From an uncultured Candidatus Actinomarina sp. (GTDB lineage: Bacteria > Actinomycetota > Acidimicrobiia > Actinomarinales > Actinomarinaceae), in contig CACOBL010000001.1 of assembly GCA_902625455.1 (NCBI GenBank), positions 244,191 through 308,190 on the forward strand: a stretch of DNA of 64,000 nt, in the 5' to 3' direction. The notes under the pieces are model-generated. The model was not told the origin of the DNA. It worked only from the letters and a program-made list of their open reading frames with translations, and did no database searches. Made by a program: the position numbers and the translations under genes. Shown piece by piece: positions 1-61,513 of this stretch. Position 1 is the stretch's first letter. Each line of letters begins with the position of its first letter.

Positions 1-2261
1 TTGAAGAAAAAGTTACTTCTGGTGACTGGAAATTATATATTGATTTTGAAGGCGAAATTGTAGATGATTTAAGAGGTTTTTATAGAAGCAAGTTTGTAGA
101 TGAAAATAATAAACAACAATGGATAGCTACAACCCAATTTGAACCTACTTCTGCAAGAATGGCTTTTCCTTGTTGGGATGAACCAGAATATAAGTCGGTT
201 TTTTCAATAACTCTTACATCCGATAAATCAGATATAAGAGTTAGTAATGAAAAAGTTATCAGCGAAACAACCTTGAATGAGAGAACTGCAAGTAAGTTCG
301 AAGACACAATGAGAATGTCTACCTATCTTGTTGCATTTGTAGTTGGTCCTCTAGAAATTACAGAAATAGGAAAATCTAAAACAACAGATGTTCGAGTCGT
401 TCATAGGCCTGGATTTGGACAACAAACAAAATTTGCTGGAGAAGCAGCCATAAAAATTTTGGACTTTTTTGAAAATTATTATGACATAAATTATCCAGGA
501 ACGAAATTAGATTTAATAGCTATCCCAGATTTTGCTATGGGAGCCATGGAAAATGTTGGTGCTGTAACTTTCAGAGAAACTTTGCTATTGATTGATGTTG
601 AAAAAGCTACAAGAGCAGAATTGTCTAGGTCTGTTGAAGTTGTTGCGCACGAACTTGCACATATGTGGTTTGGAGATTTAGTAACAATGAAATGGTGGGA
701 CGGAATTTGGTTAAATGAAGCATTCGCAAGTTTAATGGAGGTGATTGCCTCAGAAGCTACCTATCCTGAATTTAAATTGTGGAATGAACTAAATCTAGCA
801 AGAAGCCAAGGTTTTAATGTAGACTCCCTTAAATCTTCAAGGCCAGTTGAGTTTGAAGTTGCAACACCAGAAGAAGCGGAAGAAATGTTTGACGTTCTAA
901 CATATCAAAAAGGTTCTACTGTTTTAAGAATGTTTGAGACATTTATTGGTGAAGAAAATTTTAAAAAAGGTGTCAGAAATTATTTGAACAAACACAAATA
1001 TAAAAACACCCACTCATCTGATTTGTGGACAGAACTTTCTGGAGAAACAGAATATGATTTAGAAGATATCTTGCCCACTTGGATAAAACAAGAAGGCTAC
1101 CCAATAATTAGTATTGAACATAAGGAAAATACAAATTTTATTTTTTCGCAATCAAAGTTTTTAATTGATGGAGAGACTGATGATTCGCAATGGAAAGTTC
1201 CTATAAATATCCGTTTTCTAGATAATAGTAAAAGTCAAAAAGTTCTTTTAGAAAATAAGACTGACTCTTTTGAACTTATTGGCAATGTACCATTTATCAA
1301 CAACGGAGGTTGGTCCTTTTTCCACTCAGCATACGACGCTAAACATCTAAATGAAATTATTCGATACTTTGATGATTTGGATGTTAATGAAAAATATCGA
1401 CTACTTGAAGATTCGTGGATGTCTTTAAGAACAGAGAAGCTGACCTTAGAAAGTTTCCTTAAACTAATTGATTTATATAAAAATGAAACTGATAAAAATA
1501 TATGGTCTTTAGTTTCGGGGATATTTGCCACTCTTCATAAGATAGATTCGAGTAATGAACTAGAAAATTACATAGCACAATTCTGTAGACCATTATTGGA
1601 CAAATTAGGAAGTGAGTATAAAGAAGGCATAGATCAAGAAACGTCCCAATTAAAATCATTGATTTGTTTTTTGTATGCGAAATACTCAAAAGATGATAAA
1701 TTTATTTCATATTTCACAGATCAATTTAATTCAGAAGCATATAAAGATTATTCTGATGGAAATTACTATAACTTAGTCCTCTCTATATCAGGACTAGACA
1801 AATCAATTTCAATTAATAATTATTTAAATAACTTCATTAATTCAGATTCTCCACAGATTGAAGCTAGGTTTAGGTCAAGCCTTCCAGGAGTTTATGATCC
1901 AGAGACTCCAAAAGTGGTTATTGAAGCAATACTCAATGAGACTATAAGAGGTGCTGACGCCCCATACCTACTTGCTGGCCTGATATCACATCATGAAAAT
2001 GGTAAAAATGCTTGGGAAATTATAAAGTCAAACTGGAAAGATTTACTGAAAGTAATGCCCGAATGGACTTCATCACGAATTCTTGATGGGCTTCCGTCGG
2101 TTTATGATGAAAATATAGGAAAAGACATCCAAGATTTTATAAAATTAAATCCGCTTCCATCTGCAGAAAAACTAATGAAGCAAAAGTTTGAAAGATTAAG
2201 TGCAAATATTAAATTTAAAAATTCTATAAATAGTGCACTAAAAAAGGCTAAATTTGTATAA
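1..2261 (+). CDS. pepN: Aminopeptidase N (M1 family zinc metallopeptidase), 5' end outside window
   Basis: HELAHMWFGD...WLNEAF (HEXXH-18-E gluzincin motif). The frame stays open back to nt 3 (..QFEPTSARMAFPCWDEP, a conserved PepN N-domain motif), so the true start lies upstream of the window. The ORF track's M at 159 is internal. Confidence 0.9.
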   Translation, partial: EEKVTSGDWKLYIDFEGEIVDDLRGFYRSKFVDENNKQQWIATTQFEPTSARMAFPCWDEPEYKSVFSITLTSDKSDIRVSNEKVISETTLNERTASKFEDTMRMSTYLVAFVVGPLEITEIGKSKTTDVRVVHRPGFGQQTKFAGEAAIKILDFFENYYDINYPGTKLDLIAIPDFAMGAMENVGAVTFRETLLLIDVEKATRAELSRSVEVVAHELAHMWFGDLVTMKWWDGIWLNEAFASLMEVIASEATYPEFKLWNELNLARSQGFNVDSLKSSRPVEFEVATPEEAEEMFDVLTYQKGSTVLRMFETFIGEENFKKGVRNYLNKHKYKNTHSSDLWTELSGETEYDLEDILPTWIKQEGYPIISIEHKENTNFIFSQSKFLIDGETDDSQWKVPINIRFLDNSKSQKVLLENKTDSFELIGNVPFINNGGWSFFHSAYDAKHLNEIIRYFDDLDVNEKYRLLEDSWMSLRTEKLTLESFLKLIDLYKNETDKNIWSLVSGIFATLHKIDSSNELENYIAQFCRPLLDKLGSEYKEGIDQETSQLKSLICFLYAKYSKDDKFISYFTDQFNSEAYKDYSDGNYYNLVLSISGLDKSISINNYLNNFINSDSPQIEARFRSSLPGVYDPETPKVVIEAILNETIRGADAPYLLAGLISHHENGKNAWEIIKSNWKDLLKVMPEWTSSRILDGLPSVYDENIGKDIQDFIKLNPLPSAEKLMKQKFERLSANIKFKNSINSALKKAKFV

Positions 2262-2272
2262 AAGGAGATGAA

Positions 2273-3091
2273 ATGAAACCAAGAATTGCTGTATTTTTAC
2301 AACCTCAACATGCAGAGTATGACCAGATAAGGAAAGCTGCTAAGGAATCGGAAGAAATTGGTGCAGATGTTATTTACAACTGGGACCATTTCTATCCGCT
2401 ATACAAAGAAGATGGTACACAATGGGAACAGGGTGAAAGAAGAGAGGGGAAGCATTTTGAATGTTGGACCATGCTAGCTAGTTGGGCTGAAGTGACAGAT
2501 AAGATTGATGTAGGTCCTTTAGTTACATGTAATTCATATAGAAATCCTGAACTATTAGCTGATATGGCTAGAACTGTTGACCACATATCTGATGGGCGGG
2601 TAATTCTTGGAATCGGCTCGGGTTGGTTTGAACAAGATTATGAAGAGTATGGTTATGAGTTTGGCACAGCAATATGGAGGCTCAAAGAACTGGAAAAATC
2701 ATTGGAAAGAATTGTAAAAAGGATGGGCAAATTGGATCCTCAGCCTAAAAGAAAGATACCTATACTAATCGGAGGTGGTGGGGAAAAAGTTACTCTTAGG
2801 CTAGTCGCACAGTATGCAGATATTTGGCATGGATTTGCAACGAAAACAGAAGAACGAAGTGGCATTGAGACTGTAGCACACAAAAATTCAGTTTTAGACA
2901 ATTGGTGTTCTGAAGTAGGAAGAGATCCAAATGAAATACAAAGATCAATTGGAATAGATATTAAAAGAATTGATCTTGCCGATGATCTGTTGGAAGCTGG
3001 AGCTACTGAAGTAACTTTAGCCGTTAATGGACCAGGATATGATTTGTCTTTAGTAAAAGAGTGGATTGCATGGAGAGATTCAAAAGAATAG
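2273..3091 (+). CDS. Luciferase-like (LLM) flavin/F420-dependent oxidoreductase
   Basis: About 270 aa with an LLM-class TIM-barrel signature (GRVILGIGSGWFEQDYEEYG). The SD AAGGAG sits 7 nt upstream of the ATG. Confidence 0.6.
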   Translation: MKPRIAVFLQPQHAEYDQIRKAAKESEEIGADVIYNWDHFYPLYKEDGTQWEQGERREGKHFECWTMLASWAEVTDKIDVGPLVTCNSYRNPELLADMARTVDHISDGRVILGIGSGWFEQDYEEYGYEFGTAIWRLKELEKSLERIVKRMGKLDPQPKRKIPILIGGGGEKVTLRLVAQYADIWHGFATKTEERSGIETVAHKNSVLDNWCSEVGRDPNEIQRSIGIDIKRIDLADDLLEAGATEVTLAVNGPGYDLSLVKEWIAWRDSKE

Positions 3092-3101
3092 ACAGCAAAA
3101 C

Positions 3102-4025
3102 ATGGATATATTAATTCTCATATTCGGATTTATAGTAGGGTTAATTTTTTTAGTAAAGGGTGCAGATGAAATGGTTGATTCTGCCGTACAGATCGCTTTA
3201 AAATTCAAAATTCCCAGTTCAATCATAGGTGCAACATTTATTGGATTTGGTACATCTGCACCAGAATTGTTTGCAAGTACGGGAGCTGCATTAAATGGAG
3301 ATTTAGATCTGGGAATTGGAAATATAGTAGGTTCAAATATTGCAAATTCATTACTTGTAGTAGCAGTTTTGTATCTTGCAATTCCAAAAGACTTTGATAA
3401 GAAAATTAAGCTCAATCAACTTAGTCCAGTTTGGATGGCAATCCTCACCACTGTATTTGTATCAACTTATGTTCTTTTCAGTAGCTTTCCACTGTACTTA
3501 GGAATTGTGCTGTTAGTTTTGACAATTTATGTAGTTTACAAAATGGTAAGTACTGACAGTGTTGAAGAAGAAGATTTCAAAACAGAAGAAAAAAAATACG
3601 TGTGGCTAAGGGGATTCCTTTCTTTAGCCGCAACTCTTTATGGAAGTCAATTAGTGGTTGATAATGCAGTTAAGATAGCAGAAACGTTTGGCGTTTCATC
3701 TTTGGTAATAGGTTCAACAATTATTGCAATTGGTACTAGTCTTCCGGAAGTTGCTGGAACAATAGCAGCGGCGAGGATGAGAAAGCCTGACATTGTTTTT
3801 GGAAATATTTTTGGTTCAAATCTTTTTAATATTGGATTAGTTGGCGGTGTGGCAATTTCAATAAGCCCTGGAAATATTCTTTCAAGAATTGATTACCAGC
3901 TATTTATGATGTATTTTGTTTCTTTTCTTGTAATATTTTTATCAAGAAATGTCATTAAAAGAAACATTGTTATTGGGTATTCTTTTATAGCTTTTTATCT
4001 TTTATTTATTATTAGTCTTTTTTAA
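3102..4025 (+). CDS. CaCA-family Na+/Ca2+ (K+-dependent) exchanger, YrbG-like
   Basis: Two alpha-repeats, GFGTSAPELFAS and AIGTSLPEVAGT, in a polytopic membrane protein. The start was moved to the internal ATG (MDILIL) to avoid overlap with the upstream gene. Confidence 0.75.
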   Translation: MDILILIFGFIVGLIFLVKGADEMVDSAVQIALKFKIPSSIIGATFIGFGTSAPELFASTGAALNGDLDLGIGNIVGSNIANSLLVVAVLYLAIPKDFDKKIKLNQLSPVWMAILTTVFVSTYVLFSSFPLYLGIVLLVLTIYVVYKMVSTDSVEEEDFKTEEKKYVWLRGFLSLAATLYGSQLVVDNAVKIAETFGVSSLVIGSTIIAIGTSLPEVAGTIAAARMRKPDIVFGNIFGSNLFNIGLVGGVAISISPGNILSRIDYQLFMMYFVSFLVIFLSRNVIKRNIVIGYSFIAFYLLFIISLF

Positions 4026-4845
4026 TATTTTTATTCTTTAAGAAAAAGATTAATCCTAAAAATGCAAGAAGGGCTCCTCCAATTTGATTCCAGGTAAATA
4101 TACCAATCGTAGAATCGCCCATTCCAAATCTTAAAGTGTCTAGAAATGCTCTTTGAGTTCCATACCATACTGCCCATAAACCAATCCAAGATCCTTTTCC
4201 AAACTCATAACGATTTTGCAACGATCTAAAAATAAAGAAAACAATTAATGCAAGGATTAAGTCGTAAAGTGCGACGTGATGGTATGTTCCACAAGTTAAC
4301 AGTGGCTCCGTACATTCTAAAGAATTGTGTTGCGGGGCAACGTCATATCCCGGCTTAATCTCATAACCTAAAAAGAAGCTTGTTTCTCTTCCTAAATGTT
4401 CGACGATAGCCAGATCGCCAATTCTTCCAATAACAGTTCCCAGTATTAATCCTGTGGCAGCGTAATCTCCATATTGTTTAAAATCTTCTTTATTAAAAAT
4501 ACTAATTTTAAGATATGCAGCAATAATTCCTCCTGCCATACCACCCATAATTGAATAGCTACCAGCTAATGTAAAAATATCGCCTAATCCATACCCTGGG
4601 TTGGCATACCATTGTGCTGGTATAGTGAAGAATCTTGCTCCAAGAATTGCGCCAAAAATAGCCCAAGTAAGCGCCTCAGAAAATAAAATAGCGTTTGCTC
4701 CATCTTTTTCCGAAAGTTTTAAAGCATGACTAGCTCCAAAATAGAATCCAACAGCGGCAAAAACGCCATGTAAAGAAAGGAATACAGGCCCTACTTTTGT
4801 AATTGGTATTGGAGGATAGGTTATTGAAAAAAATATTTCTTCCAT
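4012..4845 (-). CDS. lgt: Prolipoprotein diacylglyceryl transferase
   Basis: Polytopic membrane protein with Lgt-like N-terminus (GPVFLSLHGV..VGF), a GGMAGGIIAAY glycine-rich segment and an HHVALYDL (HPxxLYE-like) motif. Confidence 0.7.
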   Translation of the reverse strand: MEEIFFSITYPPIPITKVGPVFLSLHGVFAAVGFYFGASHALKLSEKDGANAILFSEALTWAIFGAILGARFFTIPAQWYANPGYGLGDIFTLAGSYSIMGGMAGGIIAAYLKISIFNKEDFKQYGDYAATGLILGTVIGRIGDLAIVEHLGRETSFFLGYEIKPGYDVAPQHNSLECTEPLLTCGTYHHVALYDLILALIVFFIFRSLQNRYEFGKGSWIGLWAVWYGTQRAFLDTLRFGMGDSTIGIFTWNQIGGALLAFLGLIFFLKNKNIKKD

Positions 4846-5799: not shown

Positions 5800-6819
5800 A
5801 TGCTGATAAAAAAAGTTTTTAAATTAAAAAATTTAAGATATGTATTTTTCTTATTTATATATTCATGTATTGAAAATGCTCCTCTAGACTCTTTAAGTCC
5901 TGAAGGACCATATGCTAGATCAATTGATGAATTATTTTGGATTACTTTTTGGATTGCTGTTGTAATTTTTGCAATTGTTCAAGGTGCACTATTATTTTCA
6001 GTTTTTGTATATAAAGAAAAACCTGACTCTCCTGAACCAAAGCAAATTCATGGCAATACAAAGTTAGAAATCATCTGGACTGTAATACCAGTTCTAATTT
6101 TAGCTGCAATTGCTGTTCCTACAGTAAGGACGATCTTTGATCTAGCAAGAGAACCTGAAAATGCACTTAAAATAGAAGTAATTGGCCATCAGTGGTGGTT
6201 CGAATACAAATATCCTGATTATGGAATAACTACCGCAAATGTTTTGGTAATTCCGGCTGATAGACCAGTAAGACTTGAAATGTGGTCAAATGATGTTCTT
6301 CATAATTATTGGGTTCCAAAATTAAATGGAAAAAGATACCTGGTACCGGGACAAACAACGTATCTTAATCTTCATGCTGACTCACCAAATGAATTTTGGG
6401 CACAATGTGGAGAGTATTGTGGATTGAGTCATTCAAAAATGAGAGGGCGGGTTTTGTCATTGTCTGAAGAAGACTTTGCAGCATGGGTAAAAAATGAACA
6501 AAAAGACGCCACTGCTTTTAGCTCTGATGATTTATCTCTTGCAGCGGAGGGGCAACAAGTTTACTTAAATGCTGGATGTACACAGTGTCATGTAATTAAT
6601 GGTGTATGGGATGTGCAAGGAGATAGAATTGCGCCAAATTTAACACATTTCGCAATCAGAAATGTTTTTGCTGGAGCGGCATTAAAAAACAATCCTGAGA
6701 ATCTTACAAAATGGCTTGCAAATCCCGCCGAAATTAAACCAGGTACTTTTATGCCTAATCTAGAATTGACTGAATCGGAAATAAATGCTTTAATTGCGTA
6801 TTTGGAGACACTTAAATGA
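5800..6819 (+). CDS. ctaC: Cytochrome c oxidase subunit II with fused C-terminal cytochrome c domain (caa3-type)
   Basis: CuA site H..CGEYCGLSHSKM, plus a C-terminal CTQCH heme-c motif followed by a Met ligand region. Confidence 0.9.
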   Translation: MLIKKVFKLKNLRYVFFLFIYSCIENAPLDSLSPEGPYARSIDELFWITFWIAVVIFAIVQGALLFSVFVYKEKPDSPEPKQIHGNTKLEIIWTVIPVLILAAIAVPTVRTIFDLAREPENALKIEVIGHQWWFEYKYPDYGITTANVLVIPADRPVRLEMWSNDVLHNYWVPKLNGKRYLVPGQTTYLNLHADSPNEFWAQCGEYCGLSHSKMRGRVLSLSEEDFAAWVKNEQKDATAFSSDDLSLAAEGQQVYLNAGCTQCHVINGVWDVQGDRIAPNLTHFAIRNVFAGAALKNNPENLTKWLANPAEIKPGTFMPNLELTESEINALIAYLETLK

Positions 6820-8798
6820 CAAAGATAATTAAACCAGGAAAACAAAGCAGTATTTTTAGAAGACCTTCTTCAGAAACTGGAATTTGGAGCTGGATTACAA
6901 CTGTTGATCATAAAAGAATAGGAATAATGTATGGATATGCTGCATTCTTCTTTTTGTTAATTGGCGGTCTTGAAGCCCTTGTTCTTAGAATACAACTTTC
7001 TCAACCTGACAATAATTTTTTAACAGCTGCTGAATACAATGCAATGTTTACAATGCATGGGACTACCATGATCTTCCTAGCAATAATGCCTATAAGTGCT
7101 GCCTTCTTTAATTATTTACTACCTTTACAAATTGGTGCAAGAGATGTTGCTTTCCCTAGGCTCAATGCTTTATCTTTTTGGATATTTATTTTTGGTGGAG
7201 CTTTCTTATACTCTACTTTTATATTTGGAACCGCAGGTGCTCCTGAAGGAGGTTATCTTTCTGAGGAAGTTGGTTGGTTGGGATCCGCTCCTAACGGTGG
7301 TTGGTTTGGTTACCAACCAAATGCTGGAATGAAATATTCTCCTGGAACTGCAATGGATTATTGGGCAATAGGCCTTCAAATTTTAGGCATTGCTTCACTA
7401 ATTTCTGCTTTTAATTTTATAACAACAATTATTAATATGCGCACTAAAGGAATGAGATTCATGAGAATGCCTGTATTTACGTGGATGACTTTTGCTGTTT
7501 CCTTTCTATTAGCGTTTTCATTGCCAATTATTGCGATCGCACTTTTTTATGTAACTTTTGATAGAAAATTTGGTACTACTTTCTTTTTAACAGAAGGTGG
7601 TGGTGACCCAATCTTATGGCAGCATTTATTTTGGCTATTTGGTCATCCAGAAGTTTACATATTAATTTTGCCGGCTTTTGGAATAGTTTCAGAAGTTTTA
7701 CCAACATTTTCACGAAAACCACTTTTTGGCTATGCGGCAATAGTTTTTGCAGGTTTTGGAATCGCATTTATCGGTTTTGGTGTCTGGGCACACCACATGT
7801 TTGCTTCTGCAATAAGTCCTGTAGCACAAGCAGGGTTTGGATTATCAACTATGGTGATTGCTGTACCAACTGGAGTCAAAATATTCAATTGGTTAGGAAC
7901 AATTTGGGGAGGAAAGCTTAAATTAAATACTCCAATGTTATTTTCTCTAGGGTTTATAGGAATGTTTGTCATAGGTGGATTAAGTGGCGTAACTCACTCA
8001 GTAGTTCCTGCAGATACACAACAAACTGATACTTATTATGTAGTTGCACACTTTCACTATGTACTTTTTGGTGGTGCTCTTTTTGGTATTTTTTCTGGAC
8101 TTTATTATTGGTTTCCAAAAGTCTGGGGAAAAATGTATAACGAAACATTAGGAAAGCTACATTTTTGGACAATGCTTATTGGGTTTAACTTAACATTTGG
8201 TCCAATGCATTGGTTGGGTTTGCAAGGGCAGGTTCGAAGAACATGGGTATATGCCGAAGAAACAAACTTGCAATTTTGGAATATAGTCGTGACAATTGGA
8301 GCATTCATAATTGCTGTTTCAATTATTATTTTTATGATAAATTGGATTTTCTCAAAAAGAAAAGGTGAGAAAGCTCCTTTTGATCCATGGGATGCGAGAA
8401 CAATTGAGTGGACAATCCCTTCTCCTACACCTGAATGGAATTTCTCTAAAGCTCCGGAAGTTAAAGCACTAGATGATTTCTGGCATGCAAAATATGAAGA
8501 AGATGATGAAGGAAGGGCTGTAAGAAAAGAATCCGCTGAGCAATTATTGATAGAACTAGAAGAAGAGGGCTTAAATCCTACGGAAAATATTGTATTACCA
8601 AACCCGTCATACTTTCCGATTGTACTTGCTTCCGGATTACCATTTTTAGGCTATGCAGTTATTTATAAATCAATTCCACTTGCTTTAATAGGTTCGCTAC
8701 TTTTACTTATTGGCAGTTTCGGCTGGGGAACCGAGCCATTAGAAGAAGAAGTAGAAGATGAAGAAGATAATAATGAGGAATATCTAGATAATGTCTAA
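6816..8798 (+). CDS. ctaD: Cytochrome c oxidase subunit I (14-TM caa3-type, acidic C-terminal tail)
   Basis: Canonical heme-copper oxidase motifs WFFGHPEVYILILP and HHMF. 660 aa, with two extra C-terminal TM helices and an EEEVEDEEDNNEE tail. Confidence 0.92.
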   Translation: MTKIIKPGKQSSIFRRPSSETGIWSWITTVDHKRIGIMYGYAAFFFLLIGGLEALVLRIQLSQPDNNFLTAAEYNAMFTMHGTTMIFLAIMPISAAFFNYLLPLQIGARDVAFPRLNALSFWIFIFGGAFLYSTFIFGTAGAPEGGYLSEEVGWLGSAPNGGWFGYQPNAGMKYSPGTAMDYWAIGLQILGIASLISAFNFITTIINMRTKGMRFMRMPVFTWMTFAVSFLLAFSLPIIAIALFYVTFDRKFGTTFFLTEGGGDPILWQHLFWLFGHPEVYILILPAFGIVSEVLPTFSRKPLFGYAAIVFAGFGIAFIGFGVWAHHMFASAISPVAQAGFGLSTMVIAVPTGVKIFNWLGTIWGGKLKLNTPMLFSLGFIGMFVIGGLSGVTHSVVPADTQQTDTYYVVAHFHYVLFGGALFGIFSGLYYWFPKVWGKMYNETLGKLHFWTMLIGFNLTFGPMHWLGLQGQVRRTWVYAEETNLQFWNIVVTIGAFIIAVSIIIFMINWIFSKRKGEKAPFDPWDARTIEWTIPSPTPEWNFSKAPEVKALDDFWHAKYEEDDEGRAVRKESAEQLLIELEEEGLNPTENIVLPNPSYFPIVLASGLPFLGYAVIYKSIPLALIGSLLLLIGSFGWGTEPLEEEVEDEEDNNEEYLDNV

Positions 8799-9375
8799 TG
8801 CTCATGCTTATCCGCATGAACCTACTGGAGTCGAGACCAGAAAGTTGGGGATGTGGGTATTTCTTTCAACAGAAATTTTGTTTTTTGGAACATTAATAAC
8901 TACTTTTATGATTTTTAAAGGCAGAGAATTTCCTGGGATAAAACTTACTGATGTTTATGACATCCCATTCACTTCAATAAGTTCATTTATACTTTTAATG
9001 AGTTCGCTAACAATGGTTTTAGCTCACAATGCTCTTGAAGCAAAAGATCAAGAAAAAACTAGGGTTTGGTTACTTGCAACTGCAATGCTTGGTGCTGTAT
9101 TTTTAGCTGGACAAATTTATGAATTTACCGAGTTCTATCACAAGGGTTTTAAGCTTGATACGAATATATTTAGTTCAACTTTTTATGTGTTAACCGGATT
9201 TCATGGATTGCATGTATTTATAGGCGTTGTTCTTTTATTAGCTCTATGGGGTATTGGACAAAGGCAGCAAGGCTTGACTCTAGAGGGTGGAATGAATTTA
9301 GAATTTGTTGCACTTTATTGGCACTTTGTGGATATTGTTTGGATAGTGTTGTTTACAGTTGTGTATTTAATTTAA
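8791..9375 (+). CDS. ctaE: Cytochrome c oxidase subunit III (short form)
   Basis: Subunit III N-terminus RKLGMWVFLSTEILFFG and HFVDIVWIVLF. About 194 aa, like Bacillus CtaE. Confidence 0.85.
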   Translation: MSNAHAYPHEPTGVETRKLGMWVFLSTEILFFGTLITTFMIFKGREFPGIKLTDVYDIPFTSISSFILLMSSLTMVLAHNALEAKDQEKTRVWLLATAMLGAVFLAGQIYEFTEFYHKGFKLDTNIFSSTFYVLTGFHGLHVFIGVVLLLALWGIGQRQQGLTLEGGMNLEFVALYWHFVDIVWIVLFTVVYLI

Positions 9376-9376
9376 A

Positions 9377-9676
9377 ATGTCAGAAGAACATATTAACCAC
9401 CCTACTCCAAAACGCTATGTACAAATTGCAATTATTCTTGGTGTTTTAACGGCAATTGAAATTGCACTTTACTATACAGAAGATCTTGTTGGAGCCTTCA
9501 CGGCCCCACTTTTAATAATCCTTGCTGTAGGAAAATTTGTAATTGTTGTTGGATGGTTCATGCATTTAAGGTTTGAGAGTAAAATGGTAAATAGATTTTT
9601 TGCTGGAGGAATGATTTTAGCTTTAATCTTATTTGCCATAGTAATGATTGAACGAGCATCGGCTAATTTTTCCTAA
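9377..9676 (+). CDS. ctaF: Cytochrome c oxidase subunit IV (Bacillus CtaF-type)
   Basis: 99 aa, 3 TM, immediately after ctaE. Family assignment from size, position and hydropathy. Confidence 0.6.
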   Translation: MSEEHINHPTPKRYVQIAIILGVLTAIEIALYYTEDLVGAFTAPLLIILAVGKFVIVVGWFMHLRFESKMVNRFFAGGMILALILFAIVMIERASANFS

Positions 9677-9679
9677 ATC

Positions 9680-10462
9680 ATGTTACAGAACTTACCTTGG
9701 CACCCTCATTATGATGTTTGGGCATTAATATTTACACTTATCATTTTTTTTGAGTTTTCTACAAAAAATGAAATTGTAAAGAAGAAGAAAAGAAGGCTAT
9801 GGTACTCAGGAATTTTTATACTTTGGATTTTTACTGATTACCCCATTCACGATATTGGTGAGAAATATTTATTTTCTGTTCATTCAGTTGAACATTTAGT
9901 TTTAGCATTAGTTGCACCACCCCTGCTGCTTTTAGGTATGCATAGAGAGATGAAAAAACTTATATCTGTTAAACCGTTTATTAACTTGCTTAAAATAACT
10001 TCTAAACCAATTATTGCTTTTTTTCTATTCAATGTTGTTATGGTAGGAATGCATTGGTCATCAGTGGTTAACTTAATGGTCACAAATACTTTATTTCATT
10101 TTCTTATTCATTCTGTAATGCTTTTAGTTTCTTTAAATATGTGGGTTCCAGTAATAGGATTCAACGAAGAAATAATGCCTTTAAATTCTGCAGCAAGAAT
10201 TGCGTACTTATTTTTGCAGTCATTATTACCTACTATACCTGCCAGTTTCCTCGCTTTTGGAACTGAGCCCCTCTATAGTGCATATCTAAATACAAATAGC
10301 ATTTTTAATATTTCAGTTATTAACGATCAGACTCTCGCAGGATTAATTTTAAAACTTGGAGGGGGAATTATATTGTGGATCTCGATTCTTGTAATTTGGA
10401 TGAGATGGTACCAAGATGAAAAAACGTTTGACGACGTAGTTAGAAACAACTCATCAGACTAG
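9680..10462 (+). CDS. ctaG: Caa3-type cytochrome oxidase assembly factor CtaG-like membrane protein
   Basis: 7-TM membrane protein directly downstream of ctaF (ctaCDEFG order as in B. subtilis). Assignment is by synteny and topology only. Confidence 0.45.
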   Translation: MLQNLPWHPHYDVWALIFTLIIFFEFSTKNEIVKKKKRRLWYSGIFILWIFTDYPIHDIGEKYLFSVHSVEHLVLALVAPPLLLLGMHREMKKLISVKPFINLLKITSKPIIAFFLFNVVMVGMHWSSVVNLMVTNTLFHFLIHSVMLLVSLNMWVPVIGFNEEIMPLNSAARIAYLFLQSLLPTIPASFLAFGTEPLYSAYLNTNSIFNISVINDQTLAGLILKLGGGIILWISILVIWMRWYQDEKTFDDVVRNNSSD

Positions 10463-10480
10463 AATAATATTAATTTCATT

Positions 10481-11614
10481 ATGGATTTACAAAAATTAGA
10501 ACAATTAAGTAGCTCGAGCGGTATACCTTTAGACTTATTATCTAGATCAATTCAAGCTAGAGCAGAAGCTGCTGGTGTTTCATCTGATGACATACTTAAT
10601 AACTGGAGTGGTGGAGAACCATTAACAACTACTACTCAAAGCGAACCTCCTGAAAATAAAATAGAAGAAGTAAGTGTTGAACCACAGCAAAATGAGCCAG
10701 AAGTACAAACAAAGGAAGAACCTGCTGTAAAAGAATCCGATTCTGAAAATGTTATTGAGGAAAGTCTTGGTGTAACGACCATCGTTATTGAAGATGCGCC
10801 TCCCCCAGTTCCATTAAGTCAAAAAATATTTAAATCATTAAAGTACGGATTAGGTTTTGGAATATTATGTGGTTTTATTCAAGGATTAGTAACGAGCTCT
10901 TATCTTTATGATGGACTAATTTTAGAGGCAGAAACCCAAAATTTGATTTCAGAATATAACACTGTTTCATTTGTGTTGATAATTTCTTTGACAACTGCAT
11001 TTATTAGTTCGCTAAATGCTTTAAATATTAAAAAATTCTTAGAAAGAAACTTTCAGGGTTATGGAGTTTTAACAAATGATAAAGAATCAATTTTTACTGG
11101 AATTGGATTAGGACTAGTTTTTGGTTCATCATCAGCTTTTTTTATTGTTAATAGTGTTGGACAAACAATTGAAGGAATTTTACCAGAAGACCCTGTAATT
11201 AATTTGATCAGTGTAAGTAGTGCTTTTTGGAGAATAGTTATAATGTCGGCATTTATTCAGTCTTTAATTGCAGTACTAACAATGATTTTGGGAATTCCAA
11301 AAGGTCTTGATTTAGATGATCTTATTGAGGCTAACAAAATAAGAAATAGAATAGTCGGGTCAATCATTATTCCACTGGGTTCAATTGTTGTTGGAGGAAT
11401 CGTAGCTGTATCAGTAGCTCAGATTTTTCTCAACTTTCACGACTACGCGCCACTGTTTGCATTAATTATTTCTGCAGCAATTTTATTATTTGCAAGTGTC
11501 ATGAGTTCAGCACCAAAAATTCGAATTACAAGAAGTGAAGTTATTATTGCTTCTGTTGGAGTTATTACACTAATTGTAATAATTGCTAGTGTTGCAGCGA
11601 GCCAAAACTTGTAA
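10481..11614 (+). CDS. Hypothetical modular membrane protein (N-terminal soluble domain, acidic Pro/Glu-rich linker, 6-7 TM)
   Basis: No family recognised. Lies 19 nt after ctaG and ends 1 nt before aceA, so it is probably co-transcribed with the oxidase operon. Confidence 0.35.
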   Translation: MDLQKLEQLSSSSGIPLDLLSRSIQARAEAAGVSSDDILNNWSGGEPLTTTTQSEPPENKIEEVSVEPQQNEPEVQTKEEPAVKESDSENVIEESLGVTTIVIEDAPPPVPLSQKIFKSLKYGLGFGILCGFIQGLVTSSYLYDGLILEAETQNLISEYNTVSFVLIISLTTAFISSLNALNIKKFLERNFQGYGVLTNDKESIFTGIGLGLVFGSSSAFFIVNSVGQTIEGILPEDPVINLISVSSAFWRIVIMSAFIQSLIAVLTMILGIPKGLDLDDLIEANKIRNRIVGSIIIPLGSIVVGGIVAVSVAQIFLNFHDYAPLFALIISAAILLFASVMSSAPKIRITRSEVIIASVGVITLIVIIASVAASQNL

Positions 11615-14019: not shown

Positions 14020-15987
14020 ATGCATAATATTTTGCGCATACTTTTTTTATCTTGCCTTATGTTGATTTTTGCATGTGGAGCTGAAGAGTCTGCCAACTTA
14101 GACCCACAAGTTGTAAGAGTTGTCGATGATGAGTTTTCTCCAAAAGTAATAAGAGTTGAACCAGGAACAACGGTAATTTGGGAATCTGGCGGAGCAAATG
14201 ATCATAATGTAATTGCAAGTGATGGTTCCTGGCAAGCTATATCATCGGACTATTTTGAATATGGAATTATTACAAAAGGCGATCAATATGAGCACACATT
14301 TAATGAGCCTGGAGTTTACGATTATTACTGTCCGTATCATGGAACCAATGACAAAGGAATGGTTGGAACAGTAATCGTAGGAGATGTTGATTTTGCTGTT
14401 GAGCCTGAAAAAGTGATTGTTAGTTTAAGTGAGAATGTTTTAAGTGTAGGTCAAGGTGAAGCATTTACAAAAATTCAAGATGCTGTTGATGCAGCACAAG
14501 AAGGAGATTTAATTCTAATTAACCCTGGAGTTTATAACGAAAGTATAACTGTCACTACTTCTTATCTAACACTCAGGGGGACTGATAGAAATAAAGTGAT
14601 AATAGATGGTCAGTTTATGAGTGAAAACGGAGTGCAGATTTATGAGACAGACGGAGTCACGGTTGAAAATCTATCTGTAAGAAACTTTACACTAAATGGC
14701 GTATATTGGAATACAGCAAAAGGGTTTAGAGGTTCTTATTTAACTGTTTATAACAACGGAGATTATGGTGTCTATGCTTTTAATTCAACTGATGGTGTAT
14801 TTGATAATGTGTATGCATCAGGACATCCTGATAGTGGAATTTATATAGGACAATGCTACCCATGTAATTCTCTAATTTACGATAACGTAGTTGAGGGTAA
14901 CGCACTAGGATATTCAGGAACAAATGCAGGTGGTCATTTGTATTTATATAACAATATATGGCGCGATAATATGTCAGGTATTGTACCAAATACTCTTGAC
15001 TCTGAACTTAATCCTCCAGGTCGAGAAACAACAATTGTTGGAAATCTAGTGATTGACAATAATAACTATGAAGCTCCTACAAACCGATTTGGCGTAGTGG
15101 CTAAAGGTATGGGAATTGTTGTTCCGGGAAGAGTTGGAGATGTCATTGAAAAAAACTTAGTGATTAATCATGATCGCTATGGAATTGTTGCAAGCCCGAT
15201 GCTTGACGCAAATTTATACTTTTCTCAACATGTAAGCATTGTTGATAATGTTGTTTTAGATTCTGGGTACACAGATTTAGCCCTTGCAGGGCCTTGGGGT
15301 CCCGGAAACTGTTTTGAAAACAATGTTTATCAAACAAGTACTCCTCCATTACTTGAACAAGTCCATAACTGTAGTTCTATCAATTCAACAAATATACTTG
15401 CTAGATTCCCACTACAAGGAGACCCTTCTGGACTTATGATGCTTGCTGGATTCTTTGCTGATGCACAAACTACTGATCTAGACAAAAATAGATATAAAGA
15501 ATACCCTTGGCCAAAAGAACAAATGAATATGGAGTTTGATAATATTAATGAGCCATCTCCAGCAATAAATTTATTTTACGTACCAAACTTAGAAGAAATA
15601 AAGATACCTACAAACTTACTTAATGAGGATTTAGAAAATTACTACAATGCTGAAAAGGAGATAATTATGAGCGGAGTTCCAATTTCAAGCCCAACATTGT
15701 GGCAGTTATTATTTCAACTTTACGGATACTTGATGCCGTTTGTGTTGTATGCTGCTTGGGCTGCTTTAGCGATAAAGGATATTGACTCTAACGACAAAGT
15801 AAATGGAAGTATGAAATATATATGGTTGGGGGTGGTTTACCTTGTACCATTTTTTGGTGTTCTTGTTTACCACCTTATGGGACCAAGTGCCATATCGCGC
15901 AGTATGAAGCTAGCAGCGATTGTTGGTGGACTATTTAGTTACATTGCAATACTTGTTGCAGGCGCAGTGATTAGCGGATTAGTTTAA
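14020..15987 (+). CDS. Lipoprotein fusing a cupredoxin (type-1 Cu), a right-handed beta-helix (NosD/pectate-lyase-like) and a C-terminal PLDc_N membrane domain
   Basis: Signal peptide plus lipobox (LIFAC-G). Plastocyanin-like ligand set H..C-P-Y-H-x6-M (HNVIASDG ... YYCPYHGTNDKGM). Repeated beta-helix strands (NNGDYGVYAFNST, NVVEGNALGYSG, VIDNNNYEA, NVVLDSGYTD). C-terminal WAALAIKDID....WLGVVYLVPFFGVLVYHLMG matches the PLD N-terminal (PLDc_N) membrane motif. Confidence 0.6.
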   Translation: MHNILRILFLSCLMLIFACGAEESANLDPQVVRVVDDEFSPKVIRVEPGTTVIWESGGANDHNVIASDGSWQAISSDYFEYGIITKGDQYEHTFNEPGVYDYYCPYHGTNDKGMVGTVIVGDVDFAVEPEKVIVSLSENVLSVGQGEAFTKIQDAVDAAQEGDLILINPGVYNESITVTTSYLTLRGTDRNKVIIDGQFMSENGVQIYETDGVTVENLSVRNFTLNGVYWNTAKGFRGSYLTVYNNGDYGVYAFNSTDGVFDNVYASGHPDSGIYIGQCYPCNSLIYDNVVEGNALGYSGTNAGGHLYLYNNIWRDNMSGIVPNTLDSELNPPGRETTIVGNLVIDNNNYEAPTNRFGVVAKGMGIVVPGRVGDVIEKNLVINHDRYGIVASPMLDANLYFSQHVSIVDNVVLDSGYTDLALAGPWGPGNCFENNVYQTSTPPLLEQVHNCSSINSTNILARFPLQGDPSGLMMLAGFFADAQTTDLDKNRYKEYPWPKEQMNMEFDNINEPSPAINLFYVPNLEEIKIPTNLLNEDLENYYNAEKEIIMSGVPISSPTLWQLLFQLYGYLMPFVLYAAWAALAIKDIDSNDKVNGSMKYIWLGVVYLVPFFGVLVYHLMGPSAISRSMKLAAIVGGLFSYIAILVAGAVISGLV

Positions 15988-27529: not shown

Positions 27530-27847
27530 ATGACTATAACAAAATTTATTTCATACGTTATAAGTGTCTCAATGATAGGAGTAATAATTTGGGCACAAAA
27601 CCAGGTTTCTTTATTTGATTCACCTATTCCAGATTTACCATGGGGCATAGTTTCTCTTGTGGATTTGTACGGAGGATTTATTTTAGTATGCTTATGGATT
27701 GCTTACAAAGAATCTCTATCTTCCACAATAATTTGGACATTTTTTGTTTTAATTTTAGGAAATCTTACTACTGCGATTTATATAATTTACAGCATAAATA
27801 AATCAAAAGGTGATGTAGTAAATTTTTTTATGGGAAAAAATTCTTAG
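27530..27847 (+). CDS. Small 3-TM membrane protein (DUF1475-like)
   Basis: 105 aa and hydrophobic. Motif WGIVSLVDLYGGF. Confidence 0.35.
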   Translation: MTITKFISYVISVSMIGVIIWAQNQVSLFDSPIPDLPWGIVSLVDLYGGFILVCLWIAYKESLSSTIIWTFFVLILGNLTTAIYIIYSINKSKGDVVNFFMGKNS

Positions 27848-30000
27848 TCTTTTTTGAGATTGTCTAAAAGAATTAAAGAAACATCCCTTACTTTGACATT
27901 ATCTCCATAACCAAGTTCTTTTACACCATCATCCATCATTATGTAGCAAAATGGGCACGCAACAGCAACTTCATCAGCACCAGTTTCAATTGCTTCTTGA
28001 GATCTTTCAATATTTACTTTTTTGCCTACTGACTCCTCCATCCACATTCTTCCACCACCAGCACCACAACAAAAACTCTTTGTTCCTTGGCGCTTCATCT
28101 CTCTAATTTCTATTCCCCCAATTGAGCCAACGATCTCTCTAGGTGCTGTATAAATGTCATTATGCCTACCCAGATAACAAGAATCGTGATAAGTAATTTT
28201 ATAAGGTTTGTCACTTGTTCCAACTTCTATTCTGCCTGACTGTACGAGTTCGGTTAATAACTGACTATGATGAATCACTTTGTAATCTCCACCTAGTTGA
28301 GGATATTCATTTGCAATTGTATTAAAACAGTGAGGGCATTGTGTAATAATTTTATCTACTTTTAGATTGTTCATGTTTTCAATATTTTGTATTGCAAGTT
28401 GTTGAAAAACAAATTCATTACCTGTTCTCCTTGCTGAGTCTCCTGTGCAGACTTCTTTGGGTCCTAGAACTGCAAATGACACTCCAGCTCGTTGTAAAAG
28501 TGTTGCAACAGCTTTTGTAACAGGCACATTTCTATCATCAAAAGCGCCTGCACATCCAATCCAGTATAAATAGTCATACTCTTCATAATTTGAATCATCA
28601 ATAACAGGTACTTCAAAATCAAGATCTTCGGTCCACTTTAGCCTATCATTTTGTGATGCTCCCCAGGGGTTTGATGAATTTTCCATTGCTACGTATGCTT
28701 TACCAAGCTCAGATGGAAAGTCAGATTCCATCAATGCTAAATGTCTTCTCATATCAAGTATTTTGTCCAAGATCTCAATATTTACAGGACATATCTCATC
28801 ACATGCTCTACATGAAGTACATGCCCAAACTTCTTCTGAAGTAATTCTTTCAAAAACATTTGATGAGTTAATTTTTAACGGTCCAGGAGTACTTATAGTT
28901 GCTGGAACTGGGGGTGTGCCTGATTCTGACATTACTTGGCCAACTTTTAAAATTATCTCTCTTGGATCAAGAGATTTCCCGGTTTGATTTGCTGGACATA
29001 CAGAAGTACACCTTCCACAAACTGTACATGCATCTAAATCCATAAGTTGTTTCCATGTAAAATGATCAATCAACTCAGTACCAACATTATCAATATCCTC
29101 GGCTTCTAAAAGGTTCCCAATATCTCTCATGGCTCCTTTGTGTCTTTCCTTAGGAGACATAAACATGTTGACTGGTGAAGTGATAATATGACGTAATTTT
29201 GAAATAGGCATCGCGACAAGAAAAACAAAGAAAGAAGCCACATGCAAAACCCAAGATATCCTGTGAAATAATTGAGGATTAGATAAATCTAAAATATCAG
29301 CAACAAGATATCCAATAAATGACCATTTTTCGTAATCTGGAAATTGCTCAAATGCAATTCGACCAGCTTCAGTAGTAACACCAGAGATTCCGATAAAAAT
29401 TAATAGTGATAATGTTAAATAATCATCAGCGGTAGTTTTTGTTTCTATACGATATTCAGCACCTCTTAGTCTTCTAATTAGAGCCCAAAAAAGGCCTACA
29501 AGATAAGCAATAGTTGCTAGCTCTAGGAGAAAAGAATAAACAATATATGTTGTGCCCTGTAAAAATTTAAGTGTTGGTGGCAATAAATGATGGATTTCAA
29601 GAGTTATAGTGCCTGCAAATAAACCAAGAAATCCTACATAAATTAATGAATGCATCAAACCAGCAGCTTTAAATCTAAGGACGGTTCTCATTGTTATACC
29701 GTCAAAAAAACTTAAGACACGTAATGAAAATGCAACTTTCCTTTTCTCTTCTTTACCTCTTGACCAGTTTTTTACCCTTAATGAAAATAAATAACCAGAA
29801 AGAAAAATTGTTGAAGCACTTAAAACGTAGAATATATACTGGAGCACTTTAGGTATATTTTCAAATACACGTCTACCATCAACTATTTCTCCTTCTGGAA
29901 AAATATAACTTGCTGCCCATAAAAACAAAGTACCGATTGAGGCTCCCGCTGAAAACAAAAGAACATACTCATTGCCTTTTAAATTTTTTAATTTATTCAT
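27844..30000 (-). CDS. Membrane-anchored Fe-S oxidoreductase, HdrD/GlpC/DsrK-like (NarI-like TM domain, 2x[4Fe-4S] ferredoxin and two CCG domains)
   Basis: N-terminal 5-6 TM with conserved His (HHLLPP, HVASFFVF). CTVCGRCTSVCP and CTSCRACDEICP ferredoxin motifs. C-terminal Cys-rich CCG motifs (CPHCFNT, SFCCGAGGG, CPFCYIMMD). Confidence 0.75.
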   Translation of the reverse strand: MNKLKNLKGNEYVLLFSAGASIGTLFLWAASYIFPEGEIVDGRRVFENIPKVLQYIFYVLSASTIFLSGYLFSLRVKNWSRGKEEKRKVAFSLRVLSFFDGITMRTVLRFKAAGLMHSLIYVGFLGLFAGTITLEIHHLLPPTLKFLQGTTYIVYSFLLELATIAYLVGLFWALIRRLRGAEYRIETKTTADDYLTLSLLIFIGISGVTTEAGRIAFEQFPDYEKWSFIGYLVADILDLSNPQLFHRISWVLHVASFFVFLVAMPISKLRHIITSPVNMFMSPKERHKGAMRDIGNLLEAEDIDNVGTELIDHFTWKQLMDLDACTVCGRCTSVCPANQTGKSLDPREIILKVGQVMSESGTPPVPATISTPGPLKINSSNVFERITSEEVWACTSCRACDEICPVNIEILDKILDMRRHLALMESDFPSELGKAYVAMENSSNPWGASQNDRLKWTEDLDFEVPVIDDSNYEEYDYLYWIGCAGAFDDRNVPVTKAVATLLQRAGVSFAVLGPKEVCTGDSARRTGNEFVFQQLAIQNIENMNNLKVDKIITQCPHCFNTIANEYPQLGGDYKVIHHSQLLTELVQSGRIEVGTSDKPYKITYHDSCYLGRHNDIYTAPREIVGSIGGIEIREMKRQGTKSFCCGAGGGRMWMEESVGKKVNIERSQEAIETGADEVAVACPFCYIMMDDGVKELGYGDNVKVRDVSLILLDNLKKD

Positions 30001-50504: not shown

Positions 50505-51725
50505 ATGGATAATTTACTAAATTCAGATGCAACAACCGCCTTAATTCTATTAGGAATATTGATTGTTTCTTATGGAATTTTAAGATCTATTTTTTTTCCA
50601 GCTGTAAAAAAAATAGCAAATAGGACATCAACGTTTATTGATGACTTATTTCTTGACAAAAAATTTTTAAATAGGCTCTCTTATGTTGTAGTTTTTATCA
50701 TCTTCAATATATTGACCGCAACGCCAGAATTTAGTATTGACCTGTTTAGCAATGTTATTGTTTCGAGACTAATAGATGCTGCATTTGCACTATTAGTCGG
50801 ATTGACGATTTTAGAAGTCTTAAGCGTTTTCAATAAAATTTCTGAAAAAATTGATGTTTTAAAAAATAGACCAATAAAAGGTTATATACAAATTCTAAAA
50901 ATTATTATCTCTGCTTTTGTGGTGATTATTATTTTCGCAATCGTAACTGGACAGTCTGTAGCTTATTATATAAGTGGACTTGGCGCTCTTACAGCTGTTT
51001 TACTATTAGTTTTTCAAGATACAATTTTGTCATTTGTAGCCTCAGTTCAAATAGGTCAAAATGACATAATCAAAATTGGAGACTGGATTGAAGTTCCAGA
51101 ATTTGGAGCAGATGGTGATGTAGTAGACATTGCTCTTCACACTGTAAAAGTTCAAAACTGGGACAAAACAATAACAACAATTCCGACATCGAAAATTGTA
51201 AACACTTCTGTTAAGAATTGGAGGGCAATGTCTGAGTATGGTGGAAGAAGAATCAAAAGATCTTTACTTATAGATATTTCAAGTATCAAATTTTTAACGG
51301 CCAAAGAAATTTCGGAATTAGAAAAATTAGCACCATTAAAGGATTACATATCTTTTAAAAATAACGAATTATCTGAATTTAATGCTTCTATTGAAAATCC
51401 GGATAACAGTATTGAAACTAGAAAATTGACAAATATAGGTACATACAGAGCTTATGTTGAAAGCTATTTGAAACAAAATTCAAACTTAAATACTGAAACT
51501 ATGACATTCCTTGTTCGACAACTTCCATCCTCTCCAGAAGGTGTGCCATTAGAAATCTATACATTCACAAACACGACTGAGTGGGAGGCGTATGAAAAAA
51601 TTCAGTCTGATATCTTTGATCACTTATTTGCTATTCTTCCAAAATTTGGCCTAAGAGTTTTTCAAAATGGACTACTCGAAGCAGTAGCTGTTAAAAATTT
51701 ACCCTTTAATCAGTTGGACGAATAA
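50505..51725 (+). CDS. Small-conductance mechanosensitive channel (MscS family)
   Basis: MscS pore helix/beta domain (GALTAVLLLVFQDT..VQIGQNDIIKIGDWIEV..GDVVDIALHTVKVQNWDKTITTIPTSKIVN). Confidence 0.8.
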   Translation: MDNLLNSDATTALILLGILIVSYGILRSIFFPAVKKIANRTSTFIDDLFLDKKFLNRLSYVVVFIIFNILTATPEFSIDLFSNVIVSRLIDAAFALLVGLTILEVLSVFNKISEKIDVLKNRPIKGYIQILKIIISAFVVIIIFAIVTGQSVAYYISGLGALTAVLLLVFQDTILSFVASVQIGQNDIIKIGDWIEVPEFGADGDVVDIALHTVKVQNWDKTITTIPTSKIVNTSVKNWRAMSEYGGRRIKRSLLIDISSIKFLTAKEISELEKLAPLKDYISFKNNELSEFNASIENPDNSIETRKLTNIGTYRAYVESYLKQNSNLNTETMTFLVRQLPSSPEGVPLEIYTFTNTTEWEAYEKIQSDIFDHLFAILPKFGLRVFQNGLLEAVAVKNLPFNQLDE

Positions 51726-56503: not shown

Positions 56504-56713
56504 ATGAATGTTGTATTTACAGTTCCTGAAATCAGTTGTGGTCATTGCAAGGATACAATTGAATCTACATTAGACAATGTCGACTCTATAGAAAGTGTTT
56601 CGGTTGATATTGAGAAGAAATCTGTTGAGGTTGTCTCATCTGCTGATTTAGATATGATAAATGTTTCTCAACTGTTAGATGAACAAGGCTACACAGTTGT
56701 CCAATCAGAATAA
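56504..56713 (+). CDS. copZ: Copper chaperone CopZ (HMA domain)
   Basis: M-x-C-x-x-C type motif (SCGHCK) in a ~70-aa ferredoxin-like HMA fold. The track's TTG start at 56495 was replaced by the ATG. Confidence 0.75.
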   Translation: MNVVFTVPEISCGHCKDTIESTLDNVDSIESVSVDIEKKSVEVVSSADLDMINVSQLLDEQGYTVVQSE

Positions 56714-60946: not shown

Positions 60947-61513
60947 ATGTTATCAGACAAGGACATCAAAATATCGTTAGAAAACAATGAAATAGAAATC
61001 TTTCCTTTAGATGAAACTTATATTCAACCTTCAAGTGTAGATCTTAGAGTTGGTAGTGAATTTAGAGTTTTTGAAAATCATAAATATTCTCATATAGATC
61101 CAAAAGCAAATCAGGAAGATTTAACTACATTGGTTACAGCTACGAATGATGAACCATTTGTACTTCATCCAGGAGAATTTGTTCTAGGAACTACATACGA
61201 AAGAGTAACTTTATCAAATAAGGTAGTCGCAAGACTCGAAGGAAAAAGTTCCCTCGGTAGAATTGGCTTATTAATTCATTCAACTGCAGGATTTGTAGAC
61301 CCTGGTTTTTCTGGTTTTTTAACACTTGAACTATCAAATGTCGCAAATTTGCCTATAAAAATTTATCCTGAAATGAAAATAGGTCAGATATCTTTTTACT
61401 ATTTGAATTCACCATCTGAATCTGAATATGGTTCGGGAGTATACGGAAGCAAATACCAAGGACAAGAGGGACCTACTCCAAGCCGTAGTCATAACGATTT
61501 TAAAAGTAAATGA
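60947..61513 (+). CDS. dcd: dCTP deaminase
   Basis: dUTPase-superfamily motifs ([27 protein letters not shown]). About 188 aa, typical of Dcd. Confidence 0.85.

Follow-up and report, generated by a model that had tools for sequence, protein, structure and literature searches.

A type-1 cupredoxin paired with a parallel beta-helix in Candidatus Actinomarina: a widespread, uncharacterised family and a possible extracytoplasmic redox module

What would an actinobacterium do with a protein that carries a blue-copper domain near one end, a membrane module at the other and a pectin-lyase-like fold between them? The question is raised by one open reading frame (ORF) in a 64,000-nucleotide stretch of Candidatus Actinomarina DNA (contig CACOBL010000001.1, positions 244,191-308,190; GC content ~33%), hereafter the window. 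The ORF (14020..15987, + strand; 655 amino acids (aa) plus stop, delimited from the ORF list, close homologs and an AlphaFold model) encodes, in this order, a signal peptide with a lipobox, a cupredoxin, a right-handed parallel beta-helix, a conserved extension and a module of three transmembrane (TM) helices. A preliminary description of this DNA had recognised the domain composition and placed the protein outside the cytoplasm, and both points hold. Our results show that the gene is representative of a family that is still uncharacterised and not a one-off oddity, and that the conserved core of this family is the cupredoxin/beta-helix pair, with third partners that vary. The reading that we favour, tentatively, is that of an extracytoplasmic redox module whose cupredoxin would serve as the electron relay linking the beta-helix domain with a copper oxidase; judging from sequence, we class the gene as a putative cupredoxin-wired enzyme module.

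The fusion had been presented as one that matched no described family, a claim that stands only in part. On the one hand, we found no description of the fusion or of the family, and no functional study of it, in the open-access literature (including papers on TIGR03805, on Actinomarina copper proteins and on DUF1996), and neither NCBIfam nor Pfam has a dedicated model. On the other hand, the architecture is common and generically annotated. An exhaustive search over 1.8 billion cluster representatives yielded 403 clusters at 50% identity (E<1e-30), and NCBI holds a 99%-identical protein together with more than 100 clusters at ≥76% identity from Ca. Actinomarina. The best 150 clusters comprise proteins with cupredoxin, beta-helix and three TM helices, with cupredoxin and beta-helix, with beta-helix and three TM helices, with the beta-helix alone, and with beta-helix, two TM helices and PD40 repeats; in longer relatives the only extra domains are PD40/TolB-like repeats or a second beta-helix. 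The names given by the sources are limited to 'plastocyanin', 'plastocyanin/azurin family copper-binding protein' and 'right-handed parallel beta-helix repeat-containing protein'.

The pairing itself was assessed in two sets of loci, with ±8 kb examined around each genome match. Scanning one genome per GTDB species gave at least 595 confirmed relatives, and the best 80 of these form the first set. They come from Actinomycetota, eight Leptospira species including L. interrogans, Pelagibacteraceae, Gemmatimonadota, Acidobacteriota, Chloroflexota and Bacillota, and all 80 carry cupredoxin and beta-helix (73 of them the membrane module as well). The second set consists of 80 metagenome loci from a sister clade, 40-59% identical to the representative P0199 and related to 'beta-helix-only' proteins. 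A cupredoxin lies within the locus in 67 of them: fused in 13, encoded separately directly upstream on the same strand in 49, and elsewhere within 5 kb in 5. Cupredoxin and beta-helix are thus fused or share a locus in 147 of the 160 sampled loci, counts that do not represent independent events, the loci being related to one another, but that span several phyla and reach down to ~40% identity. The 'beta-helix-only' or cupredoxin-less representatives P0199, P0131 and P0137 have housekeeping or lipid genes as neighbours and were uninformative.

Is the copper site complete? The cupredoxin occupies residues ~26-125 (14095..14394, +) and was identified by Pfam, by matches to PDB sequences and by Foldseek. 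Copper-bind (PF00127) passes its cut-off over residues 38-120 (45.8 bits against 21.2); the nearest PDB sequences are 5fc9, a cupredoxin of N. maritimus (E=5e-9), plastocyanins and amicyanins, and Foldseek returned the same families. The plastocyanin-type type-1 site that had been proposed was recovered with its exact spacing, H62...C104-x2-H107-x6-M114 (codons at 14203-14205, 14329-14331, 14338-14340 and 14359-14361, +), which is a complete His-Cys-His-Met set that 30 of 32 fused homologs retain. Position by position, these homologs have His in 32/32, Cys in 30/32, His in 32/34 and Met in 27, with Gln in a further 3; in the cupredoxins of the sister clade (n=68) the figures are 68/68 for Cys, 68/68 for His and 67/68 for Met, and over the whole ligand set they range from 64 to 68. 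The loop length C-x2-H-x6-M is kept across both collections. The domain shares its fold and ligand set with the single-domain cupredoxins (plastocyanin, amicyanin, pseudoazurin, halocyanin, 5fc9), and with halocyanin a lipid anchor, predicted for the window protein. It differs from them in three respects. It scores below their equivalog or subfamily cut-offs (plastocyanin TIGR02656, 42.4 against 87.85; halocyanin TIGR03102, 48.9 against 93.8; amicyanin TIGR02657, 27.6 against 110.2), its ligand loop, C-x2-H-x6-M, is longer, and it always has a beta-helix partner.

The AlphaFold model of the 655-aa protein, computed from an alignment of 72 diverse homologs, reached a mean predicted local distance difference test (pLDDT) score of 91.8 and a predicted template modelling (pTM) score of 0.88. 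It comprises a cupredoxin sandwich, ~10 beta-helix rungs, an extension that stays well ordered until about residue 530 and, at the C-terminus, three long helices, and its pTM indicates that the domains are held in a fixed arrangement in the predicted structure. The beta-helix spans residues ~147-455 (14458..15384, +). We confirmed the fold that had been assigned to some 350 aa of repeats and corrected the length, since ~310 aa of repeats are followed by ~100 aa of conserved extension. Pfam Beta_helix scores 42.4 bits against a cut-off of 25.9. The closest curated sequence model is TIGR03805 (beta_helix_1), an uncharacterised parallel beta-helix subfamily without assigned function; it aligns over residues 152-397 with E=1.5e-26, and its score (93.2) falls below the cut-off of 141.5. 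The domain is hence homologous to TIGR03805 but lies outside that family, as a sister group and not a member.

Column identity within the beta-helix averages 64% across seven phyla, and this is our reason for regarding the domain as more than a scaffold. Conserved in at least 90% of the 72 homologs are R186, D189, R190 (72/72), D196, E216, Y249, Y252, D271, Y275 and D419, which form a ladder along the domain, and the cysteine pairs C279/C282 and C431/C451, the latter just before the extension. The secondary structure and rung periodicity of the model place conserved residues on equivalent strands of successive rungs, which suggests a single conserved face. The motif C279-Y-P-C282, in rung 5 (14854..14865, +), was picked out by homolog conservation. 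Both cysteines are present in 69 of 72 homologs and lost jointly in the other 3, a pattern that would fit a disulfide or a site needing both residues; as this joint loss is tolerated, we downgraded CxPC as a catalytic or metal site. We also rejected H384 as a ligand, since it is His in only 38/72. The extension (residues ~456-560; 15385..15699, +) carries a P-x-P-x2-Q-P-x-M-P motif with P498, Q501 and M504, of which Q501 is Gln in 51/72 and M504 is Met in 58/72. It is modelled with pLDDT mostly of 89-98 over residues 470-530, and is conserved also in homologs that lack the TM module.

The two ends of the protein would anchor it. The lipobox noted in the preliminary description is L-I-F-A-C19 (N-terminus MHNILRILFLSCLMLIFAC19G; signal peptide at 14020..14076, +), read from the sequence, with Cys19 as the predicted lipidated residue. 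An [AG]-C-G motif was found in 120 of 120 close homologs, in 43 of which the start codon had been called too late. Both lgt (4012-4845, -) and lnt (51706-53199, -) are encoded in the window, so that a lipobox, an invariant cysteine and the organism's Lgt and Lnt coincide, the combination expected of a bacterial lipoprotein. The Lnt-like protein consists of LNT_N and CN_hydrolase, and with both enzymes this minimal actinobacterium appears able to make triacylated lipoproteins.

At the other end, hydropathy and the model helices place the membrane module at 15700..15984 (+), with TM helices at residues 567-585, 598-621 and 628-655. The protein had been described as ending in a double-TM domain of the PLD N-terminal type: the PLDc_N-like identity is supported, and the helix count is three, not two. 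The first two helices probably correspond to a PLDc_N hairpin. PLDc_N (PF13396) scores 21.5 over residues 594-621, below its cut-off of 23.3, and the identity draws its support from a homologous stand-alone SAR11 gene that scores 30.9 bits; several close homologs also have a precomputed PF13396 match. PLDc_N is a two-helix domain found at the N-terminus of cardiolipin synthases and as many small stand-alone proteins. The window module resembles it in the D...W...P-x2-G-x3-Y signature across TM1 and TM2 and differs in being C-terminal, in its third helix, in the attached extracytoplasmic redox ectodomain and in having no PLD catalytic domain. A further homolog is the 126-aa product of a stand-alone Leptospira gene (tblastn E=1e-14). 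In Pelagibacteraceae a gene of its own, shortly downstream of the one for cupredoxin and beta-helix, encodes the module as a 106-aa protein (9622-9942 in locus L066; also in L055, L067, L069, L074 and L080). These split-module loci are flanked by genes for a TPR lipoprotein, an NlpC/P60 peptidase and an MFS transporter.

With what might such a pair exchange electrons? In 27 of the 75 assessable loci of the first set a protein of ~345 aa is encoded directly downstream, often overlapping the stop codon. It was found in Leptospira (7/7), Gemmatimonadota (6/7), Acidobacteriota (2/2) and other Actinomycetota (12/41), and in none of the Actinomarina-like, Pelagibacteraceae, Bacillota or Chloroflexota loci of that set. 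It is a two-domain multicopper oxidase (Pfam Cu-oxidase_3 and Cu-oxidase_2) and the most frequent neighbour (in Leptospira together with Sco), and at least one copy, in locus L062, bears a twin-arginine signal (start MGLSRRELIL). An apparent triple fusion of cupredoxin, beta-helix and oxidase in the same locus (956-aa ORF, 1712-4582) proved to be an artefact, since GC-rich DNA there happens to stay open in the wrong frame as far as the oxidase frame. The closest solved relatives of the neighbouring oxidase are 3gdc (E=1e-62), 7rab and 9cck (E=7e-37). The last is Nmar_1354 (MCO4) of Nitrosopumilus maritimus, a two-domain oxidase in which a fused 'dangler' cupredoxin lies 13.5 Å from the type-1 copper of the oxidase (PMC11761707). 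The cupredoxin of the window protein resembles this dangler (E=1.9e-5; Foldseek) as well as 5fc9. The likeness, then, lies in combining a similar type-1 cupredoxin with a homologous two-domain oxidase; the difference is that in the present family the cupredoxin is fused to a beta-helix and the oxidase is a separate neighbour, seen in about one third of loci and not in the window.

The Leptospira loci are the most elaborate. In L. interrogans (locus L056, 7956-12289) the array runs from the cupredoxin/beta-helix/3-TM protein (673 aa; 7956-9977) through a membrane module (126 aa) and the multicopper oxidase (343 aa; 10319-11350) to SCO1/SenC (197 aa), an order that looks like an operon. SCO1/SenC follows the oxidase in 7 of 8 Leptospira loci (Pfam on the L056 copy), and a stand-alone second copy of the membrane module precedes SCO1/SenC in 6 of 8. 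Divergently upstream in L056 lies a histidine-kinase-like ORF, recognised from its sequence alone. This first gene very probably corresponds to LIC12217/LA1553, 'petE plastocyanin', of L. interrogans, because the histidine kinase LIC12218 would match the kinase-like ORF (PMC5100919); LIC12217 was reported to be 1.62-fold down in serum (PMC2841595).

The sister clade has another third partner. In 38 of its 80 loci a homologous ORF (median ~314 aa) lies directly downstream of the beta-helix gene; three scanned copies are DUF1996 (PF09362, 150-160 bits), and no locus with this DUF1996-type ORF has the oxidase or the membrane module. The ORF (for example L146 6311-7255, within loci L087-L166) contains conserved His motifs such as SHEHDFFGN, and we found no biochemical function for DUF1996 in the open-access literature.

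These observations are the basis of the reading that we favour. The N-terminal lipid anchor and the C-terminal 3-TM module would hold the protein on the outer face of the cytoplasmic membrane, where the type-1 cupredoxin would act as a dedicated one-electron relay for the beta-helix domain. We propose such a relay because the type-1 pairing is near-universal, the domain arrangement is predicted to be fixed and a copper oxidase is a recurrent neighbour. The beta-helix would be the conserved working part, binding or converting a substrate, and electrons would be exchanged with a copper oxidase, the adjacent two-domain multicopper oxidase being the likely partner where it is encoded. In Actinomarina the partner could be the cytochrome c oxidase of the caa3 type or an oxidase encoded away from this gene. 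We infer rather than observe the direction of electron flow, the substrate and the Actinomarina partner, for which caa3 is a candidate by inference only. That the protein could be a copper-handling or electron-transfer module had been suggested earlier, together with its proximity to the caa3 oxidase and to a copper P-type ATPase. A module of this kind remains the best reading, by virtue of the conservation of the type-1 site, the pairing and the oxidase neighbours; only half of the stated proximity was right (see below).

Several of our own results weigh against this reading. No His is conserved in the beta-helix across the 72 homologs, nor can a cofactor motif be recognised there, and the only Cys motif of the domain, CxPC, resembles a structural disulfide in its pairwise loss. 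The top structural matches of the domain are alginate epimerases, lyases and glycosidases, and its Arg/Asp/Glu/Tyr set looks like that of carbohydrate-active enzymes more than that of redox enzymes; from the residues alone, an acid/base or cation-binding cleft seems likelier than a site for a classical redox cofactor. In Actinomarina the gene is surrounded by unrelated metabolic genes, and tblastn searches of the window and of the 8 Actinomarina-like loci detected neither multicopper oxidase nor Sco nor DUF1996 (the Leptospira oxidase and Sco, used as queries, found no copy anywhere in the window).

A bolder reading, which we regard as possible but rather doubtful, is that the cupredoxin/beta-helix pair constitutes a previously unrecognised class of extracytoplasmic oxidoreductase, in which a substrate bound in the groove is oxidised via the type-1 copper. 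Asp, Glu, Arg and Tyr line this groove, and its substrate might be, for instance, Cu(I), Fe(II) or Mn(II) as a reduced metal ion, a compound of the envelope or a dissolved organic one; the copper would pass single electrons to O2 through a two-domain multicopper oxidase or caa3.

Could the protein move copper instead of electrons? A NosD-like trafficking or maturation factor would take copper on the beta-helix (perhaps at CxPC or M504) and hand it to secreted copper enzymes, be it the neighbouring multicopper oxidase, the DUF1996 proteins or CuA of caa3, with the membrane module possibly supplying the metal. We consider this unlikely. NosD is the periplasmic beta-helix part of NosDFY(L), the machinery for the maturation of nitrous oxide reductase, and the resemblance claimed for the window protein is true of the fold and not of the family. 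Pfam NosD (PF05048) is marginal (24.9 against 23.6), and TIGR04247 (NosD_copper_fam) scores 32.8 against a cut-off of 300, aligning only residues 152-223 (72 residues). A profile built from 23 beta-helix domains missed NosD (7o0y) when run against PDB sequences up to E≤10, its only match being a pectinesterase N-terminal cap, and in fold comparison, with which Foldseek agrees, NosD is no closer than alginate epimerases or tailspikes. We therefore rejected membership on all three counts, score, profile and fold: the domain has a pectin-lyase-like fold and does not belong to the NosD family. NosD, furthermore, has no fused type-1 cupredoxin, and the membrane part of the window protein is a small PLDc_N-type 3-TM module.

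The genetic context agrees. The co-occurrence with nosZ, nosL or sco that the preliminary description had proposed to look for was not seen: Pfam identified no nos, sco or multicopper oxidase family among 51 window ORFs (159-60868; five ORFs of at least 120 aa at 60947-63816 were unscanned), which leaves no NosF/NosY-type ABC partners, NosL or NosZ among the scanned ORFs, and nosZ, nosF, nosY and nosL are absent from the conserved neighbours in the 160 related loci. A complete His2-Cys-Met type-1 site serves electron transfer, not metal transfer, and the beta-helix has no conserved Met-, His- or Cys-rich motif save CxPC, dispensable in the three homologs mentioned. Finally, four unrelated genes separate the ORF from the caa3 operon, and this synteny is limited to Actinomarina.

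The structural matches would also suit a membrane-tethered envelope-glycan enzyme, with an epimerase-, lyase- or hydrolase-like beta-helix and an accessory cupredoxin for, say, redox control or the supply of electrons for oxidative chemistry on the polymer. This too we judge improbable. Measured by fold similarity, AlgE4/AlgG mannuronan C5-epimerases, PL6/PL9 lyases, GH28 and CE8 pectinesterase share 10-18% identity with the domain, and no signature of a carbohydrate-active enzyme family reaches its cut-off; Pectinesterase CE8 (PF01095) comes to 22.7 against 27 and covers the N-terminal cap only (profile positions 11-134; 48 residues with the domain profile). The nearly universal pairing with type-1 copper is unlike the known families, as we know of no carbohydrate-active enzyme family, beta-helical ones included, that pairs with a blue-copper protein or has a dedicated type-1 copper partner. 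Moreover, the gene is kept in the extremely streamlined genomes of Actinomarina and SAR11, which carry few polysaccharide enzymes, and its recurrent neighbours are copper oxidases, not glycan-synthesis genes.

Least probable, in our opinion, is a tethered electron carrier to caa3, a Gram-positive equivalent of plastocyanin or halocyanin with the beta-helix as rigid stalk or docking scaffold: monoderm bacteria do tether their periplasmic-type carriers, anchors are predicted at both ends of the protein, the caa3 operon is nearby and the sources use the name 'plastocyanin', but a stalk would not keep such column identity and invariant charged residues across seven phyla, the beta-helix protein stays adjacent to the cupredoxin even when the two are separate genes, and the family also occurs in diderms with a true periplasm (Leptospira, SAR11, Gemmatimonadota).

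The family matters beyond this window. It is large, strongly conserved and kept in the most streamlined free-living genomes known (Actinomarina and part of SAR11), as well as in pathogenic Leptospira, whose copy has for a long time carried the label 'petE plastocyanin'. Annotations such as 'plastocyanin' and 'NosD domain' are misleading for these proteins. If the pairing reflects catalysis, a beta-helix domain would here be coupled to electron transfer by copper in a new manner, and the copper or respiratory biology of the cell surface would gain a new component. Should the pair be an oxidoreductase, it would add an electron-input or metal-handling step to some of the ocean's most abundant cells, those of SAR11 and Actinomarina.

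How close, then, is the gene to other copper genes of the window? The caa3 oxidase operon with ctaG (5800-10462) ends 3.56 kb upstream of 14020, in line with the ~4 kb that had been given. The copper P-type ATPase, placed at the same 4 kb, is 40.7 kb away: the sole heavy-metal P-type ATPase of the window (HMA, E1-E2_ATPase and Hydrolase domains; DKTGT at 57936) is encoded at 56679-58772 (+), and no P-type ATPase was found within positions 1-33000. Upstream of the gene, caa3 and ctaG are followed by a 377-aa membrane protein, isocitrate lyase, a short-chain dehydrogenase and a divergent Zn-ribbon gene; downstream come a PfkB kinase, an acyl-CoA dehydrogenase and a CoA-binding protein. All 8 Actinomarina-like loci share this arrangement, which none of the other related loci has. 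A promoter/terminator scan around the gene did no better than on shuffled sequence, and Rfam gave no match in the window.

Three further ORFs of the window deserve mention. The 377-aa ORF directly after ctaG (10481-11614, +) has no Pfam match; its N-terminal third is acidic and of low complexity, ~5-7 hydrophobic helices follow, and its product may have an accessory role, so far unrecognised, alongside the caa3 oxidase. A 99-codon ORF (9377-9676, +), which has two hydrophobic stretches and lies between the COX3 gene and ctaG, probably encodes oxidase subunit IV. Further away (27844-30000, -), a NarI-like membrane domain, a 4Fe-4S dicluster and two CCG domains of the heterodisulfide-reductase type are joined in one 718-aa protein, which by its domains would be another membrane redox protein.

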